The notes under the pieces are model-generated. The model saw only the letters and a list, made by a program, of their open reading frames with translations, was not told where the DNA came from and searched no databases. A stretch of 64,000 bases of DNA. Source: an uncultured Spirochaetia bacterium. Lineage in GTDB: Bacteria; Spirochaetota; Spirochaetia; JABEVK01. The stretch spans positions 4,522 through 68,521 of the forward strand of contig CALGPJ010000009.1 in assembly GCA_937960645.1 (NCBI GenBank). Direction: 5' to 3'. Positions 22,120 to 31,809 of this stretch are shown in pieces. The position numbers and the translations under genes are program-made. The stretch's first letter is position 1, and each line of letters begins with the position of its first letter.

Positions 22120-23811
<1,692 letters not shown>

Positions 23812-23910
23812 TCAAATGTTTAGTAAATGGCAAGAGGTCGGGGGGGAAATGTTTGGCCATGGCGCGGCTTTCCAGCAAGAGACGCATCTTCTACATTCAT
23901 TCTTCGCCGC

Positions 23911-24046
23911 GCGCGAAGCACCCATCAAAAATTGCCTTAACCTGCGCAGCCCGTTCCGCGAAGCGGAATGGCGCGGTTCTTGCGCAAACGAGCGAAGCGA
24001 GTAGCGAGAACCGTGACAAAGGGCAAGTCAGGTTGAAGCAGTTGTC
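23911..24046. repeat. left copy of ~130-bp degenerate direct repeat bracketing vapBC
   Basis: shares gcgcgaagc...ATGGCGCGGTTcTTGC...GAGCgAAGCG...GTGACAaAG...GTTGAAGCaGTTGT with 24714-24829 (~65-70% identity by eye). Confidence 0.5.
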
Positions 24047-24055
24047 CGCTTTCTC

Positions 24056-24457
24056 TTATTCATAGATTTTAAGGTCCTCTGCAACTTTTTGAATGTGATC
24101 AAAATCGGCATCATTATGTAAAAGATATAAATTGTTTTCTAAGGCTGTTTGAACTATCAAAAGATCAATTGTACTTCTAATAGTGATTCCCAATTTTCTA
24201 CATTTTAAATTGAGTCGAGCAGCTTCAGTGTGTGATTCTAATCCATTCCGCAACTGATAGATTGGAATAGTTTCTAAATATTCTTTTAACACGTCAAATT
24301 CTTTCTGATCTTTCGAGCCTTGTAGTATCTCCTGATAAATAAGAGGACTAATCCCAAATGGTATTTTCCTTTTAATTATTTCATCAAGCAGTTTAACTTT
24401 AATATTATCAGTGCCTTTCAAATAATCAATCAAAACAGATGTATCAACAAGAATCAT
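24056..24457 (-). CDS. vapC: type II toxin VapC (PIN-domain ribonuclease)
   Basis: MILVDTSVLIDYL... PIN acidic residues (D5, E, D, D), low GC (~30%), 4-nt overlap with upstream antitoxin gene. Confidence 0.85.
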   Translation of the reverse strand: MILVDTSVLIDYLKGTDNIKVKLLDEIIKRKIPFGISPLIYQEILQGSKDQKEFDVLKEYLETIPIYQLRNGLESHTEAARLNLKCRKLGITIRSTIDLLIVQTALENNLYLLHNDADFDHIQKVAEDLKIYE

Positions 24458-24663
24458 GAGTCATTTCTCATTTTTTTATAATCATACTCATCAGAAAAAT
24501 GAATTAACCCTTTTAGTTCATTAAGATTTTTAACTCGATGATTTCTTACAAATTCTATTAAGGCTAACTCAACAAGATCTTTTTTTGTACGGATGTTTCC
24601 AGCATACTTAAAAGCTTCCTTAACTAAGTTATCATCCAGGACAATATTTGTACGCATATACAC
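24454..24663 (-). CDS. vapB: type II antitoxin VapB
   Basis: 69 aa, MRTNIVLDDNLVKEA N-terminus typical of VapB antitoxins; translationally coupled to vapC. Confidence 0.7.
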   Translation of the reverse strand: MYMRTNIVLDDNLVKEAFKYAGNIRTKKDLVELALIEFVRNHRVKNLNELKGLIHFSDEYDYKKMRNDS

Positions 24664-24670
24664 CTCTCAA

Positions 24671-24688
24671 TGTGTATAATAGTACACA
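24671..24688. promoter_or_regulatory. palindrome TGTGTAtaatagTACACA upstream of vapB (candidate vapBC promoter/autoregulatory operator)
   Basis: perfect 6-bp inverted repeat flanking a TATAAT-like core, 8 nt upstream of vapB start on minus strand. Confidence 0.4.
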
Positions 24689-24713
24689 TACAAAGAAACG
24701 TCAATATCTTGTT

Positions 24714-24829
24714 TGCGCGAAGCGTCAACCGTACATTTGCTGAACTTGCAACGCGTCTATGGCGCGGTTTTTGCCGAGCAAAGCGTCAACAAAAGTGTGA
24801 CAGAGAAGAGTTTAGTTGAAGCGGTTGTT
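24714..24829. repeat. right copy of degenerate direct repeat bracketing vapBC
   Basis: see left copy 23911-24046. Confidence 0.5.
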
Positions 24830-24943
24830 ATACGTGTTTTACATATGTTTAAGAAATTCTATAAATGTTACACATCTATACGGAGGTATTTGAGCTGCAA
24901 TCCAATTCGTTCCTCTTTTAACACTTTTTGTTCTATCCTTTTT

Positions 24944-25690
24944 TTATGTAGTTTTTAGTTTTAAAGGATCATCTAAAAAGAAATACGTAAATTCCTTATC
25001 TTCATTATCCAATTTTGTTCCATCTATCCATTTTTTTACTAGTGACTCGTTATTATCTGCGAATTCCATTAAATCATCTTTGAATGATTCTACTTCACCA
25101 GGTTTACATGAAATAATTCCTAATATTTTGGAGATGAAAGAAATACCTTCTTCTTCACCAGATTTTTTTGTGAAATATGGTGCGAAATATAAAGGATTAC
25201 TGGAAATAACATCACGCCGATAAATATTATAATCAAAATATTTTTTTAATTCTAATTCAACACTTAAATCTTGAACTAGTATTTCTTTTTTATTTCTCAA
25301 TTTATATCCCCTATGTATGAAAGTTTTAAAGTCCTTAATTAATTTCTCTTTATTTTTTGGTAAATTCTTATCATCAATTAATTCATCAATATCAGACCAA
25401 TAAATATTTTTAACAATTATGTCTTTTTTGTAATCATTGATTTGTGTGATGAAGCACAATACTTTCTGCGACTCATCTTGAAATGATTCTAAGTATTGTG
25501 TTCTTTGTTCGTCTACTTTATTTTTACCAATTTTTGCTTCAATTATTACATGAAAATTATCTCTCAATCGTATTTCAACATCGGTTCTACCTTCTTTACG
25601 TTTCTTTTCAATAATAATTTCAATATTTCTATAGTTTTCTTCTGTATTCTTATTTGTAATTCCTAAATATCGTAAAAACTTAAAAAGCAT
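24944..25690 (-). CDS. PD-(D/E)xK nuclease-like protein, low-GC, probably 5'-frameshifted (true start likely ATG 25815)
   Basis: motif D(VEIRLRDNFHVII)EAK resembles restriction-endonuclease-fold catalytic core; reading frame stays open upstream of ATG 25690 to 25801 without any start codon, while a GGAGG-aaaaa-ATG at 25815 opens a 14-codon ORF in the adjacent frame. Confidence 0.45.
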   Translation of the reverse strand: MLFKFLRYLGITNKNTEENYRNIEIIIEKKRKEGRTDVEIRLRDNFHVIIEAKIGKNKVDEQRTQYLESFQDESQKVLCFITQINDYKKDIIVKNIYWSDIDELIDDKNLPKNKEKLIKDFKTFIHRGYKLRNKKEILVQDLSVELELKKYFDYNIYRRDVISSNPLYFAPYFTKKSGEEEGISFISKILGIISCKPGEVESFKDDLMEFADNNESLVKKWIDGTKLDNEDKEFTYFFLDDPLKLKTT

Positions 25691-26211
25691 TGTTGAATCT
25701 TTTGATAGAATAAAAGCAAATGCTTTTGCTAAACCAGTTTCATCAAAACCATATAAGTAAAACGGATTTATTGAGTAATTTGTAATATAATACCACTTGG
25801 TTTAATGATCATTTTTTCCTCCGCCCGAAGGGCCCTTATAACACCATTTCGACCGTTCCGTGAATAATAACTCTGGCCTGTTCTTTTTTCCTGATAAAAC
25901 CAGATTCTCAAAGAATTATTACATCCCAAATATGCCAACAAAACTTTGTCAAGTTCCTAAGAAGTCCCAACGTACAAATTTCAGACCACGAAGGAGGTCC
26001 ACGAAAAGGCGGGAAGTTGGGTGGCCAGGCCCAGGGATACCGATGCCACCGGCAGGAAAGACAAAGGTCTCCGACACACCGTAAACGGCCATCGATTCCT
26101 CTTTGCCTTTACGCCGGCCAATCTCCTGGACTCAGTAGGGTAAGATTATTAACCCCAGAGAAAATGACCACCACACCAGCGAAAATTTTTCTAATTTTTC
26201 CTCCCCCGGAC

Positions 26212-26238
26212 TAAAGTTTTCACCCATCCTGCCGATAA
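26212..26238 (+). promoter_or_regulatory. sigma-28 (FliA) promoter TAAA-N15-GCCGATAA upstream of flaB1
   Basis: exact match to the class III flagellar promoter consensus TAAA N15 GCCGATAA, ~90 nt upstream of the flaB1 ATG. Confidence 0.6.
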
Positions 26239-26326
26239 TGACAAAGGAGGTCTAAACGGAATTAGGCCCCCGCCGGATGTTATCCGGTACCCCCATCATG
26301 ATTCTGAGTATTCACGGAGGAATACG

Positions 26327-27187
26327 ATGATCATCAACCACAACCTGAGCGCCATGTTCGCTCAGCGCCAACTCAAGGTCACCAACGGTGACGTCACCAA
26401 GGACATGGAGAAGCTGTCCAGCGGCTTCCGGATCAACCGGGCCGGCGACGACGCCTCCGGTCTGGCCGTTTCAGAAAAGATGCGGGCTCAAATCCGCGGT
26501 CTGAACCAGGCCAGCCAGAACGCCAGCAACGGCATCAGCTTCATCCAGGCCACGGAAGGATACCTCCAGGAAACCCAGGACATCCTCCAGCGCATTCGTG
26601 AGCTGGCCGTCCAGGCTTCCAACGGTATTTACACCGACGAAGACCGGATGCAAATCCAGGTCGAAGTCAGCCAACTCATCGACGAGGTGGACCGCGTCGC
26701 CTTCCATGCCCAGTTCAACGGCATGAACATGCTGACCGGCTCCTTCGCCCGAGACATTGGCGAAAACGTGCCCACCGCCAGCATGTGGTTCCACATCGGC
26801 GCCAACGTAGACCAGAGGATTCGGGTCTACATCCAGACCATGACCGCCGCGGCCCTGAGCATGCGCGGTCTCACCGACAACTCGATGCTGAGCCTTCGGA
26901 CCCCCGAATCGGCCAACCAGGCGATCATGATCCTGGACAATGCCCTGCAGATTGTCTCCAAACAGCGGGCTGACCTGGGTGCCTACCAGAACCGCCTGGA
27001 ATTCGCCGTGAAAGGTCTGGACATCGGCGCCGAGAACCTCCAGGCTGCCGAAAGCCGTATCCGCGACGCGGACATGGCCAAGCAGATGGTGGACTACACC
27101 AAGAACCAGATTCTCGTGCAGAGCGGTACCGCCATGCTCGCGCAGGCAAACACCCGCTCGCAGAGTGTCTTGCAACTTCTCCGATAA
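26327..27187 (+). CDS. flaB: flagellar filament core protein FlaB (spirochete-type flagellin)
   Basis: 286 aa, [15 protein letters not shown]...[27 protein letters not shown]..., conserved flagellin N and C termini, GGAGG RBS. Confidence 0.95.
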
Positions 27188-27197
27188 GGAGTTACTA

Positions 27198-27225
27198 TTC
27201 AGGGTGGGGGTCACTCCACCCTGAA
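27198..27225 (+). terminator. hairpin TTCAGGGTGG-gggtcact-CCACCCTGAA after flaB1
   Basis: perfect 10-bp inverted repeat 10 nt after stop; weak T-tract (tatgttcttt). Confidence 0.5.
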
Positions 27226-27402
27226 TATGTTCTTTGACATTCGTACCCTTCATCTTGCTCCCCAAGGGGGTTTTGACTGCCCGAACAGCCATTTCCCCCT
27301 TGGGCTGTGGCATTTGGTCTTCTTCCTGACGCGGAGGAAAGGGCGGTGCCGCTGAGCAAGAGGAGGCAAGGGATTGCCTCTCAAAAACAAAGGAGGGTAC
27401 AT

Positions 27403-28254
27403 ATGGTTATTAATCACAACATGAGCGCCATCAACGCCAACCGGGTTTTAGGGAATGTCCAGCTGGACCTCACCAAGAACCTGGAAAAGTTGTCCAGCGG
27501 GTTGCGGATCAACCGCGCCGGCGATGACGCTTCCGGTCTCGCGGTCTCGGAAAAGATGCGGGCGCAGATCCGCGGTCTCAACCAGGCCGAGAAAAACATT
27601 CAAAACGGCGTGAGCTTCATTCAGGCCACCGAGGGCTACCTTCAGTCCACCACCGACATCCTGCAAAGGGTGCGCGAACTGGCTGTACAGGCTGCCAACG
27701 GGATCTACAGCGCCGAGGACCGGATGCAGATTCAGGTCGAGGTGAGTCAGCTCGTGGACGAGATCAACCGTATTGCGGATCATGCCCAGTTCAACGGCAT
27801 GAATATGCTCACCGGCAGTTTCGCCCGCGGTGACGACGCTCAGGCTTCGGGTCTGCAACTGCAGGTCGGTGCCAACGTCGACCAAAACCGCCGCATCTAC
27901 ATCGGCAACATGAGGGCGGACGCTCTGGGAGTGGACAAGCTGCTCGAGCAGGAGTCGGCGCTGACCAGTGCGGAAGGGGCCAACAGGGCCATCATGCTGA
28001 TCGACGGCGCTCTCAAAGAGGTCAACAAGCAGCGTGCCGATCTCGGCGCCTACCAGAACCGCTTCGAGATGGCCGCCAAGGGCGTCGCCATCGCTGCGGA
28101 AAACCTGACCGCTGCCGAATCCCGCATCCGGGATGTCAACATGGCCACCGAGATGGTCGAGTACACCAAGAACTCGATCCTCAGCCAGTCGGGCACCGCG
28201 ATGCTGGCTCAGGCCAATGTCAGAAGCCGCTCGGTCATGCAGCTCTTGGGCTAA
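27403..28254 (+). CDS. flaB: flagellar filament core protein FlaB paralog
   Basis: 284 aa, [15 protein letters not shown]..., ~75-80% identical to upstream flaB; AAAGGAGGG RBS; the longer ORF from 27307 was trimmed. Confidence 0.95.
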
Positions 28255-28344
28255 ACCGTTAGAGATTTCTGGACGTTATTTCTAACGGAAGAACGAAGAA
28301 TTGGGGGGCCGCGTCACCCTCAATTTCTTTCATAAGGAGGCAGT

Positions 28345-28698
28345 ATGTCGATTGAAACCATCGGACTCACCAGCTCCCAGCTCTTCGCTAACCCGCGGCC
28401 GGCCAACGTCAAAGCCGCGGTGCCGGAAGCTGAGGTGGCACGCACCAACACGAGCGCGGAGGAGGCCGCAAAATTGAAGGCGGAAATGCGCCAGATCGTC
28501 GACGAACTTGCCAGGATGGCCAGGAGCTTCAATCGCCGTCTCGAATTTAGCATCAACGAAGACATTAACCAGGTCATCGTCAAGATCGTCGACCAGGATT
28601 CCGGGGAGGTCGTCAAGCAGATTCCTCCCGAAGACGTCGTCCGAGTGCACGCGCGCATCCGCGAGGCTATCGGTCTCCTGTTTGACCAAAAGATCTGA
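28345..28698 (+). CDS. flaG: flagellar protein FlaG
   Basis: 117 aa, position between flagellin and fliD, C-terminal ...INQVIVKIVDQDSGEVVKQIPPE typical of FlaG; AAGGAGG RBS. Confidence 0.65.
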   Translation: MSIETIGLTSSQLFANPRPANVKAAVPEAEVARTNTSAEEAAKLKAEMRQIVDELARMARSFNRRLEFSINEDINQVIVKIVDQDSGEVVKQIPPEDVVRVHARIREAIGLLFDQKI

Positions 28699-28700
28699 GC

Positions 28701-30704
28701 ATGGGCGACATCAGCATCCCGGGTGTCTCCAGCCGCTACAACACCCAAAAACTCATCCAGGATTTGCTCGATGTCGAAAAACGCAAACTCACCCGACTCG
28801 AAACCCAAAAAGCCGACCTGGAGGACACCAAACAGATTTGGCAGTCCTACAGCCGCCGCATGTCGGTGCTCCGGGATGCCGCGCGAAATCTTTTTGGATT
28901 TGAATCCCCCTTCGCCAACCGAATCGGCGAGTCCAGCCAGGCCAATGCAGTCAGCCTCAACCCCAACCGTTCAGCTGCCGAGGGCCAGTGGCGGATTAAG
29001 GTCCTCCAAATCGCGACGGCCGACCGGCTTTTGAGCGACGAGCTTCCTCTCGACGCCACAGCCCCGGCGGGCGATTACCGCTTCAAAGTGGGCGATCAGG
29101 AGGTAACGGTCAACTTTCGAGGCGGACGGTTATCGAACCTGGTGGAAGCCATCAACCAGCGCGGCCGGGACCTGATCCGGGCCAGCCTGATCCGCACCAC
29201 AGCCGACCGTCAAGTTTTAAGTATCGAGGCACAAAAGACCGGATCCCAAAACCGGCTGGAATTTTTTGGCGCGGCCCGGGACTTCGTTACCCAGGCAGGA
29301 TTAATGCGCCCCTCTCGGACCACCGATCAAACCATCCCCCTCACCGCTGAAACGACACGGACCCGCACGGCCCCGGAGTCGGTTACCCTTTCCGAAAATC
29401 AGCTCACGCTCCAGCCCCGTGCGCGTGCCGAGGTGCTCCTCAACCGGGATGTTAGCCGCGGCCTGGTGCTGGAGGTGGACATTCAGGCCGAGCGGCTGAG
29501 CCAGGAAGAAGTTCCCGCCCCCCCGCCGGGCCTGAACCTGGAGCCGCCGGGCGTGGCAGAATTCCAGGACATTCGCATTCGTAGCAACCCCCTGCGGACG
29601 GGTCTGCCGCGGTTCGAACCGCCGACCCCCCAACAGCCAACCAATGACCCGCGCGTGGGTCAGCTGCGCACCGCCGAACGGCAGATCGATCTGCCCAATT
29701 TTCCCCTGGAGGGCGGCTCGACGACGCTCAAGGTCCCTCTGGAGGGCATCGCCCGCCTGGACCAGCTGATCCTCGACAACCGTAACACCCACATGCGCTA
29801 CACCCTCACGCAGATCCGTCTGGTCGATCCGAACGCCCGCGGCGATCTCGAGCCAAAAAATGCGCAGACCACCGCCCAGGACGCGGTGTTCGAGATCGAC
29901 GGCGTGCGGGTAACCCGCCCCACCAATTCGATCAACGACGTGATTCCCAACGTCACCATCAACCTCTCCGATACGACACCGGCCCCGGCCACGGTCAAGG
30001 TCACCCCCGACTACGAATCCATCAAAAACGGCATCATCAACTTCGTGGGAAATTACAACCGTTTCATGCTGGAAACCCTGGTGCTGACCAGTCGCAACGA
30101 AGCCATCCTGAACGAGGCAAACTACCTCAGCGATGCCGAGCGGGAAGCCCTGAGAAAAAACATGGGGAAGTTCCAGGGGGATACCTCCCTGAACCAGCTG
30201 CGATCCAGTCTTCAGCGTTTCATGATGGAGCCCTACCCCTCGGGAGTTCCCAACATCAGCCTCCTGCAACAGGTGGGCATCAGTACCAACACCTCGGGGC
30301 GAACGAGCGGCTCCACCCCCGAGGCAGCCCGGTTACGGGGCTACCTGGAAATCAACGAGGGCCAGCTGGACCAGGCGATCCGGGAAAACCTTGTGGCCGT
30401 GAAAAATCTGTTCGGCATGGATACCAACGGGGATCTGGTCATCGATAGCGGGGCAGCCTTCCGGGTGGATGAATACATTCGCCCCTACGTCCAGACCGGC
30501 GGTTTCATCGCCAACCGCGTCAACACCCTGAACTCCCAGATCGATCGTCAAAACAGGGAAATCCGCAACTTCAACGATTATCTGGTTCGATACGAGCAGG
30601 ACCTCAAACGGCGATACGGGCAGATGGAAGGGGCCCTCAATCGTATGCAGGAAACCGGCCGAGCGATCGATAATTTTAGTAGACAAAACTCAGGCGGTAA
30701 TTGA
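28701..30704 (+). CDS. fliD: flagellar filament capping protein FliD (HAP2)
   Basis: 667 aa; conserved FliD N-terminal (ISIPGVSSRYNTQKLIQDL) and C-terminal (IRNFNDYLVRYEQDLKRRYGQMEGALNRMQ) coiled-coil regions. Confidence 0.85.
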   Translation: MGDISIPGVSSRYNTQKLIQDLLDVEKRKLTRLETQKADLEDTKQIWQSYSRRMSVLRDAARNLFGFESPFANRIGESSQANAVSLNPNRSAAEGQWRIKVLQIATADRLLSDELPLDATAPAGDYRFKVGDQEVTVNFRGGRLSNLVEAINQRGRDLIRASLIRTTADRQVLSIEAQKTGSQNRLEFFGAARDFVTQAGLMRPSRTTDQTIPLTAETTRTRTAPESVTLSENQLTLQPRARAEVLLNRDVSRGLVLEVDIQAERLSQEEVPAPPPGLNLEPPGVAEFQDIRIRSNPLRTGLPRFEPPTPQQPTNDPRVGQLRTAERQIDLPNFPLEGGSTTLKVPLEGIARLDQLILDNRNTHMRYTLTQIRLVDPNARGDLEPKNAQTTAQDAVFEIDGVRVTRPTNSINDVIPNVTINLSDTTPAPATVKVTPDYESIKNGIINFVGNYNRFMLETLVLTSRNEAILNEANYLSDAEREALRKNMGKFQGDTSLNQLRSSLQRFMMEPYPSGVPNISLLQQVGISTNTSGRTSGSTPEAARLRGYLEINEGQLDQAIRENLVAVKNLFGMDTNGDLVIDSGAAFRVDEYIRPYVQTGGFIANRVNTLNSQIDRQNREIRNFNDYLVRYEQDLKRRYGQMEGALNRMQETGRAIDNFSRQNSGGN

Positions 30705-30707
30705 ACC

Positions 30708-31562
30708 ATGATCTTGAAAATCAACGGGGAGGAAGTCTCCTGGTCCGATATGGAGGCTTCGAGCTTCGACGAGGCCCTGAAGGAGATCCAAAACTGGCTG
30801 CTAGCTCAGGGATGGAGACTGGTTTCCTACAGGATTCACCCGGAATCGGCCTCCCGCGGAGCGCCGGCCCTGTCCGAAATCGACGTGTTGGATATCGAGG
30901 CCGAGGTTTTGAATCAGACAACTCTCACCCACCTCGATATTTTAATCCTTTGGTTGGACAGCCTCGGTCACGGCCTTATATCCCGTAACGAGACTGTCCG
31001 GCAAAATTGCCGGGAAGCGGCGGATCAGATCATCAAAAGTGCGGACCTGCTTTTTCATAACGGCATCAACATCCCCGTGAACCTGATCCGAAACCTGGTT
31101 CACGAAGTCGATTCCGGCTGGACCGAACTCCAGAAAAATCGGCTGGAGATCGACCAGCTTCAATCCCAGCTGGAACGCCTGAAAACCATGCTCCTGTACC
31201 CCCGCGAATCCATTCAAAAACTAGTGGATTTGATCAGCTACAGCTTATTTCAGACGGATGGACTTCCCCAACTCGTCTACGCGCAGCGTTACTCCGAAGC
31301 CATGGGTCTGATCGTCTCCATCCTGGACCACTACTCCCTTCTTGTGTTCGGTCTTGCCCAAATCACGACTCCTGACGAGATGAAACAACTGCAAACCGAG
31401 TGCCTCCCCTTTTTCAACGAACTCAGCGAGGCCATGGAGCGGATGGACTGGACCTATATCAGCGACCTCTGGGAATACGAAATTCATCCCAGGCTGACAA
31501 GGCTGGTAGAATTGATTAAATTACAGGCGGGGATAGAACAAAATGCGTCTCAAGGGTCTTGA
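30708..31562 (+). CDS. hypothetical protein in flagellar fliD operon (position where fliS is found in many bacteria)
   Basis: ATG 4 nt after fliD stop; 284 aa, helical, no recognisable FliS signature. Confidence 0.45.
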   Translation: MILKINGEEVSWSDMEASSFDEALKEIQNWLLAQGWRLVSYRIHPESASRGAPALSEIDVLDIEAEVLNQTTLTHLDILILWLDSLGHGLISRNETVRQNCREAADQIIKSADLLFHNGINIPVNLIRNLVHEVDSGWTELQKNRLEIDQLQSQLERLKTMLLYPRESIQKLVDLISYSLFQTDGLPQLVYAQRYSEAMGLIVSILDHYSLLVFGLAQITTPDEMKQLQTECLPFFNELSEAMERMDWTYISDLWEYEIHPRLTRLVELIKLQAGIEQNASQGS

Positions 31563-31809
31563 TCAGGTCAACAAAAACATCGACGGTCATATCTTTTACC
31601 GCAACGATTACACCGCCATCGCGCGCTTGATCGGGTTGGACGGCCGGGAATCTGCCAAAAAGATCAAGTTCAGCATCGAGATGGCCCCCACCGGAAAGAA
31701 AGACATCAAGGTCGAATTCCTCGAAAAGCCTGACTTTCCCGTTCTCCATCTCCTCAAAAGCATCCGGGAGGAGATCCAGGAACTCGACCGCCGGGGTGCC
31801 TTGCTCTGA
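31543..31809 (+). CDS. hypothetical small protein (88 aa), overlaps preceding gene by 20 nt
   Basis: ORF only. Confidence 0.3.
   Translation: MRLKGLDQVNKNIDGHIFYRNDYTAIARLIGLDGRESAKKIKFSIEMAPTGKKDIKVEFLEKPDFPVLHLLKSIREEIQELDRRGALL

Follow-up and report, generated by a model that had tools for sequence, protein, structure and literature searches.

A frame-broken PD-(D/E)xK nuclease-like gene, very probably a decaying pseudogene, in a probable integron-cassette remnant of an uncultured spirochaete

Why should a gene that resembles a defence nuclease carry a well-formed ribosome-binding site (RBS) and start codon in a frame other than its own? We address this question for a nuclease gene on the minus strand of a 64,000-nucleotide stretch of DNA from an uncultured Spirochaetia bacterium (assembly GCA_937960645.1, contig CALGPJ010000009.1, positions 4,522 to 68,521; the whole stretch is called the window below). 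An earlier reading of the same DNA, made from the letters without database searches (the sequence-only reading), had left three options: a pseudogene, a homopolymer sequencing error or a programmed frameshift. The first has held up, with two lesions that recur in four assemblies, and the other two have not. Judged by comparison with intact relatives, the locus is very probably a decaying pseudogene and not a case of sequencing error or programmed recoding; it is an ordinary bacterial pseudogene in a small, horizontally acquired cassette remnant.

The nuclease frame holds the largest remaining open reading frame (ORF), 248 amino acids (aa) from Met-25690, which is missing 41 ancestral residues at its start and 34 at its end and, as read from the sequence, has no Shine-Dalgarno (SD) sequence in front of its methionine. 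Upstream of Met-25690 this frame stays open (TKWYYITNYSINPFYLYGFDETGLAKAFAFILSKDST) without any ATG, GTG or TTG as far as the TAA at 25804-25802, as the sequence-only reading had described. It had also described an RBS and an ATG that open a 14-codon ORF in the adjacent frame; these are present, with the ATG at 25812-25810 and not at about 25815, where it had been placed. The SD context, GGCGGAG(A/G)AAAAAATG, is found also in intact oral orthologues in the DNA alignment. The parts of the locus are as follows.

24839..25812, minus strand: the whole ancestral gene, now very probably a pseudogene, from the ATG at 25812-25810 to the ancestral stop TAA at 24841-24839.
25818..25822, minus strand: Shine-Dalgarno sequence GGAGG, 5 nt (AAAAA) upstream of the ancestral ATG, by direct reading of the sequence.
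25768..25812, minus strand: 14-codon leftover ORF, MIIKPSGIILQITQ and a stop, in the adjacent frame; codons 1-8 are the true N-terminus MIIKPSGI and the remainder is out of frame.
25802..25804, minus strand: TAA that bounds the downstream frame on its 5' side; it results from the frameshift and is not itself a lesion.
25783..25792, minus strand: lesion 1, a perfect 5-bp tandem duplication TATTA-TATTA, in context GG(TATTA)(TATTA)C (alignment columns 111-115; a single TATTA in intact orthologues); the duplicated form of the site in the window sequence is TATTATATTA.
24944..25690, minus strand: largest remaining ORF, 248 aa from Met-25690, with the D...ExK motif kept (GRTDVEI...IIEAKIG).
25421..25426, junction 25424/25423, minus strand: 12 nt deleted in frame (CAAATGTATGAT, codons 129-132, QMYD) by comparison with the intact orthologue (alignment columns 480-491).
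25346..25351, minus strand: 6 nt (AAAGAG) inserted in frame by comparison with the intact orthologue (alignment columns 564-569).
25163..25169, minus strand: A7 tract in the window, A6 (an extra frameshift) in the three sister assemblies L001, L081 and L082, by alignment of the assemblies.
24944..24946, minus strand: lesion 2, nonsense codon TAA in place of Leu290 (TTA) of intact orthologues, by codon alignment; it is also the stop of the annotated ORF.
24839..24943, minus strand: stranded C-terminal coding remnant, KKDRTKSVKRGTNWIAAQIPPYRCVTFIEFLKHM and a stop, with the near-invariant W304, I305, I309, R313 and F317; N312 is already Y.

A homologue search with the read-through translation as its query, including the protein-like stretch that follows the ORF stop, found 96 relatives, about 90 of them 324-335 aa long and covering 95-100% of the query. 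These homologues span both frames, confirming the earlier proposal that the two derive from one gene. The best relative, P0001, is an intact protein of 324 aa, 83% identical to the fused read-through over 100% of its length. It is encoded on contigs from human oral metagenomes, one of them a metagenome-assembled genome (MAG) labelled 'uncultured Treponema sp.', with which the window shares 90% DNA identity over 1,040 aligned columns. Because the relatives start MIIKPSGI-TNYSINPFYLYGF (MIIKPSGI followed by TNYS), the true N-terminus is encoded by codons 1-8 of the short ORF, and the break lies after codon 8. The sequence-only reading had instead placed a 1-nt shift in ATT AAA CC, at the A-tract (25803-25812, ATTAAACC). 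A slip there would give a fusion beginning MIIK-TKWYY..., which left a gap of two residues against every homologue; the DNA alignment gave the 5-bp duplication at 25792-25783. Lesion 1 is, as far as this alignment can tell, a slipped-strand 5-bp duplication that separates the SD and ATG from the gene body.

The second inactivating lesion, the in-frame TAA at 24946-24944, severs a conserved 34-residue C-terminus. It had been missed in the earlier estimate of a fused protein of about 290 aa, which was too short for that reason. The conserved C-terminus (...GTNWIAAQIPPYRCVTFIEFLKHM and a stop) can still be read beyond the codon-290 TAA as far as 24841-24839, the ancestral stop, so that the gene originally extended from 25812 to 24839; its repaired product is 324 aa long and joins a PD-(D/E)xK nuclease at the N-terminus to an ASCH/PUA-like domain at the C-terminus. 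Near-invariant residues of the family have also been replaced in the window copy (I77V, G205S and N312Y), and the invariant E23 and the block W304/I305/R313/F317 fall in its severed parts.

Four assemblies of the organism were compared: the window, L001 (ERZ6864144), L081 (Logan ERR9287890) and L082 (ERZ6863697). Identity to the window is 99.4% over 12 kb for L001 and 99.9% for L081, and the four differ among themselves at 2-20 sites. Both lesions, the 5-bp duplication and the codon-290 TAA, are common to all four; in L001 one copy of the repeat has itself mutated (CATTA-TATTA). The three sister assemblies carry, besides the A6 tract, a second 1-nt deletion, TTT to TT, at about 24965, and L001 has a further 2-nt insertion between SD and ATG. 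The A7-to-A6 and TTT-to-TT frameshifts account for the truncated gene calls on the sister contigs, P0013 (189 aa) and P0015 (180 aa). The evidence for a pseudogene is thus two independent inactivating lesions in four assemblies, with extra frameshifts in three. L081 is nearly identical to the window apart from A7/A6 and TTT/TT, and L082 mixes window-like and L001-like single-nucleotide polymorphisms, which together points to mixed strains or recombination in the source metagenomes, or to a measure of homopolymer error.

The pattern of change between strains points the same way. Over 970 nt of the pseudogene, window and L001 differ by 8 substitutions and by 2 indels that shift the frame, against 1-2 substitutions per kb in flaB1 and flaB2, and the 7 codon substitutions comprise 0 synonymous and 7 non-synonymous changes. 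On these counts, and with a ratio of non-synonymous to synonymous change (dN/dS) of 0.62 measured against the intact orthologue, the constraint on the nuclease gene looks relaxed. The inactivation would be fairly recent, because the SD and ATG are intact and the residual ORF is long. Several points weigh on the other side. The dN/dS value blends functional and post-inactivation periods, and seven substitutions are a small sample. The four assemblies may partly stem from related samples of one study, two of the ERZ numbers being close. Some residual product may also come from the 248-aa ORF, which by its sequence retains the D...ExK motif.

This last point can be taken further, to the view that the 248-aa ORF from Met-25690 is a functional neo-truncated protein with a nuclease core. 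Its 248 codons are indeed open in the window, and the equivalents of D76, E90 and K92 are retained. We nevertheless hold this to be very unlikely: such a protein would start without an SD, would be without the invariant E23 and without the PUA-like domain's conserved C-terminal strand and helix, and in three of the four assemblies is interrupted once more at the A-tract, leaving 180-189 aa. All seven between-strain substitutions (7/7) are non-synonymous, and among the roughly 90 homologues that cover the fused translation over its full length, none begins at the equivalent of Met-25690.

A sequencing or assembly error would mean that the organism itself has an intact gene and that the break in frame is an artefact. 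The A7/A6 and T3/T2 differences between assemblies are homopolymer-length changes of a kind that could include technical error. The disabling lesion, however, is a mixed-sequence 5-bp duplication and not a homopolymer; the duplication and the TAA recur in four assemblies from at least three accessions, and a point substitution to TAA is untypical of assembly artefacts. We consider an error exceedingly improbable. It is just as hard to credit that a (TATTA)n contingency tract toggles the nuclease ON and OFF by slipped-strand mispairing. Phase-variable tracts in restriction-modification (R-M) genes usually sit at the 5' end, and here too a short-unit tandem repeat stands near the 5' end of a defence-type gene. 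There are just two TATTA copies, however; the copy number is constant in 4/4 assemblies, with one L001 copy already CATTA, and a return to a single copy would leave the codon-290 TAA in place, plus two more frameshifts in three strains.

Programmed ribosomal frameshifting (-1 or +2), which would fuse the MIIKPSGI start to the nuclease frame and perhaps regulate a toxic defence gene, has a negligible probability, for although a strong SD and ATG in one frame are met by a start-less, protein-like open frame that overlaps it by about 30 nt, all of the roughly 86 full-length relatives have a single uninterrupted ORF, the break is accounted for by a simple insertion when an orthologue with about 90% DNA identity is the reference, the downstream codon-290 TAA would demand a second recoding event, further frameshifts are present in the sister strains, the 31-nt frame overlap (25801-25771) contains no X XXY YYZ slippery heptamer on reading the sequence, and around the shift the RNA is no more structured than shuffled sequence (fold z -0.48) and matches no Rfam family.

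Having settled on a pseudogene, we turn to the protein that it once encoded. The earlier label of a PD-(D/E)xK-like, defence-type gene is borne out by PDDEXK_4 matches in the relatives and by their defence neighbourhoods. In all, 79 of the 86 family members match PF14281 (PDDEXK_4) at E<=0.1, the best at 1.2e-10. The read-through from the window stays below the curated cut-off of 22.3 bits, at 20.3 bits (E 5.6e-4), and P0001 lies above it, at 24.0 bits. Residues E23, D76, E90 and K92 are invariant across the 86 homologues, and the last three are present in the window. An AlphaFold2 model of the full-length protein (predicted local distance difference test, pLDDT, 85.7) places D76, E90 and K92 on consecutive strands, E74-81 and E85-91. 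Its best matches in the PDB are ASCH and the McrB N-terminal domain, followed by weaker matches to nucleases: SfsA (E 7e-3), Cap4 (E 0.04), EcoO109I (E 0.07), NucS (E 0.5) and EndoMS (E 1.6). A profile search of the sequences of solved structures gave just one marginal match, to a Cas4-like PD-(D/E)xK nuclease (E 0.3).

The C-terminal half has no sequence-profile match in Pfam. Modelled alone (pLDDT 84.9, predicted template modelling score 0.79), its leading structure matches all belong to the PUA superfamily: ZmASCH of Zymomonas (E 1.2e-4, probability 1.0, template modelling (TM) score 0.53-0.57), then the Staphylothermus McrB N-terminal domain (6n0s), YTH, the TRIP4 ASCH domain and EVE. There is no meaningful match in NCBIfam, and PADLOC, which has no model for the family, returns none save one marginal PDC-S26 match for one member.

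Homologues occur in many phyla in a scan of GTDB representatives. No neighbouring gene is conserved across 32 homologue loci. About six of the loci adjoin type I hsdRMS genes (including L012, L035, L041, L047 and L048), three (L014, L029 and L030) adjoin a cluster of DUF1156 methyltransferase, HEPN-DUF499 and SNF2-NOV_C helicase genes, and homologues stand in or beside R-M-type operons in Bacteroidota, Ignavibacteria and Spirochaetia. This genomic context fits a defence role. The fusion of a nuclease to a PUA-type reader is a hallmark of modification-dependent restriction enzymes (Lutz et al. 2019, PMC6765204; VcaM4I, PMC7897488). Because the intact family joins a PD-(D/E)xK nuclease to a PUA-type domain, its modelled architecture suggests a probable role as a type IV, modification-dependent restriction endonuclease. 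A counterweight is that the type IV function is drawn wholly from fold and architecture, with a TM score of about 0.5 and a C-terminal half that matches nothing in Pfam or PADLOC.

How such a gene came to decay here is suggested by its surroundings. It lies in the sole low-GC stretch of the 64 kb, a 1.9-kb islet at about 23920-25842 with 25-30% GC against 58% overall, flanked by groEL (22120-23769) and by two flaB genes that lie from 26327 onward. The islet contains the nuclease pseudogene and a vapBC pair, each followed by a degenerate attC site, on the minus strand. Homology to the oral contigs that encode P0001 covers 25842..24815, from a GTTRRRY-like core site to the start of an attC, about 27 nt past the ancestral stop. 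These further features are listed here.

25836..25842, minus strand: 5' boundary of the nuclease cassette, GTTATAA, which resembles a core site (the oral arrays have GTTAGAT); homology to the oral Treponema cassette starts at precisely this point.
24723..24833, minus strand: attC1, degenerate, of the nuclease cassette, with R'' GTATAAC at 24833-24827 and an R'-like GTTGACG at about 24729-24723.
24704-24676, minus strand: promoter-like site of vapBC, TTGACG-17-TATTAT, matching 10/12 positions in a promoter scan.
24056..24663, minus strand: second cassette, apparently intact, with vapB at 24663-24454 and vapC/PIN at 24457-24056 (Pfam VapB_antitoxin 7e-17, PIN 6.5e-12).
23922..24049, minus strand: attC2, degenerate, after vapC, with GCTTCAACCTGAC exact at 24039, GCAGGTTAAGG at 23945 and the R' GTT triplet mutated to TTT.

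The oral contigs are arrays of small, same-strand ORFs of about 25% GC (Ank, HAD, Amidase_2, DUF1706 and VapB-like plus PIN), separated by spacers of higher GC that form textbook attC hairpins containing bulged bases. They are integron cassette arrays, of a kind well documented in oral Treponema (PMC3607928). Two of the contigs (L002 1-5662 and L003 1-3626) show two types of attC, one short (about 65 nt) and one long (about 150 nt), and an apparently ORF-less, GC-rich unit lies directly upstream of the intact nuclease cassette (L002 3623-3852).

Both spacers in the window align over their full length with the oral Treponema attC sites. Their DNA folds are weak (z -1.3 for attC1 and -2.2 for attC2), whereas intact oral attCs reach z -5.8 to -9.6; the AAC triplet is kept in both, and the GTT triplet is kept in attC1 and reads TTT in attC2. 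The two sites look eroded. A scan with the L'' motif GCTTCAACCTGAC, allowing <=1 mismatch, gave one match where 0.15 would be expected in 64 kb. The only terminator-like hairpin of the region, on the plus strand at 24752-24766 (CGCGTCTATGGCGCG followed by a T-run), lies inside attC1 beside the attC-conserved block CGCGCCA, and probably belongs to the attC palindrome and is not a real terminator. The vapBC cassette has just 2 substitutions relative to the sister strain.

The Pfam tables of the syntenic contigs contain no PF00589 integrase between about 8 kb out on the flaB side and about 12 kb out on the groEL side; no search for intI was made in the remaining genome. A megablast search gave no plasmid match for the islet; phages were not searched. 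With attC sites present and no integrase called nearby, the islet can be classed as a CALIN, an integrase-less cluster of attC sites (Cury et al. 2016, PMC4889954), here in fossil form. What tells against a cassette origin is that, since the window attC sites are degenerate, it is founded on homology to the oral arrays and not on a calibrated attC model; the sites were judged by pairwise and multiple alignment and by folding, against oral sites that are few and of very different lengths.

The host itself falls by GroEL in an uncultured Spirochaetales lineage; in this protein it is 86% identical to 'Spirochaetales bacterium' MAGs, and 80-83% identical to Salinispira, Spirochaeta, Gracilinema and Treponema alike. 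To our knowledge, Treponema is the only spirochaete clade so far reported with integrons. In two relatives with GroEL 97% (L078) and 91% (L080) identical, the flagellar block is rearranged, and empty-site comparison with them placed just one boundary of the islet, the one proximal to the groEL promoter, at roughly 23920-23840. An element upstream of groEL on the minus strand (23770-23840), CTTGCC(A/T)TTTACTAAACATTTGATTATATTTT, is conserved in relatives whose GroEL is 91-97% identical and, from this conservation, is presumably a groEL promoter or operator; it marks where native sequence resumes beyond the islet. In L078 (1-7650, compared with window 22120-31700) the fliD/DUF8042/tsaE/tsaD block is inverted relative to groEL and flaB is not adjacent, so that the groEL-flaB junction that holds the islet may be a rearrangement breakpoint.

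Taken together, a simple history can be proposed. The 324-aa nuclease gene would have arrived in the spirochaete chromosome as an integron-type cassette along with the vapBC cassette. After arrival it was probably silent and unselected, because no integrase is called and no cassette promoter lies nearby; the silence of a promoterless cassette with no upstream integron promoter Pc would be a simple reason for its decay. A slipped-strand duplication of TATTA after codon 8 would then have split the SD and ATG from the gene body, a TTA-to-TAA change would have placed a nonsense codon at position 290, in-frame indels and replacements of conserved residues would have accumulated, and two more 1-nt deletions would have followed in the sister strains, with the attC sites eroding likewise. 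The vapBC cassette may keep the islet in the genome: the toxin-antitoxin (TA) cassette appears to be self-expressed from its own promoter-like site, which may explain why the islet has persisted.

For annotation, the locus should be entered as a pseudogene at 25812..24839, not as a 248-aa 'hypothetical protein' and not as a candidate for recoding; three gene callers have given three different truncated proteins from it (248, 189 and 180 aa). Nothing in the finding is surprising for a specialist, and what modest interest there is lies in two by-products: a fossil two-cassette integron remnant in a high-GC spirochaete, and an uncharacterised nuclease-ASCH family. The remnant offers a clean, small example of a silent integron cassette that would be decaying in place as an adjoining TA cassette stays intact. 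The intact nuclease-plus-ASCH family is widespread and unstudied, and is a candidate type IV restriction enzyme. Tentatively, and with rather more doubt than confidence, we suggest that its intact form of about 325 aa (PDDEXK_4 N-terminal, ASCH-like reader C-terminal) could be an uncharacterised family of single-chain modification-dependent restriction endonucleases that has no PADLOC model, circulates as an oral Treponema integron cassette and is scattered across many phyla, with the window recording transfer of a cassette into a high-GC spirochaete possibly outside Treponema.

Set beside known systems, the locus resembles ordinary pseudogenes made by a short tandem duplication and a nonsense mutation: it shares with them the frameshift, the premature stop, the added indels in sister strains and the relaxed constraint, and nothing essential sets it apart.

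The islet resembles the integrons of oral Treponema, and CALINs, in having one ORF or TA pair per unit, all on a single strand and with a TA cassette included, each unit followed by an imperfect palindrome that can be aligned with attC, and a GTTRRRY-like boundary. As in a CALIN, no integrase is called within 4 kb, and attC sites in a genome that lacks intI have been published before, for T. phagedenis (Wu et al. 2013, PMC3607928). It differs in having just two cassettes, set between the housekeeping genes groEL and flaB, in having both attC sites eroded and one cassette gene apparently dead, and in its host, an uncultured spirochaete of 58% GC that by GroEL is no nearer to Treponema than to Salinispira or Spirochaeta.

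The intact family, finally, is like the modification-dependent restriction endonucleases in fusing a PF14281 nuclease to a PUA-like (ASCH/YTH/EVE-like) domain, as a small single-gene unit that often stands among defence genes. In the PUA-HNH and YenY4I enzymes (PMC6765204), as in the enzyme work on VcaM4I (PMC7897488), the order is reversed relative to the nuclease-N / reader-C order of the family. The reader of the family is nearest to ASCH and not to EVE or SRA, the family is known here from sequence and models, and its copy in the window appears dead. Nuclease-N / reader-C is also the order of PvuRts1I and AbaSI.

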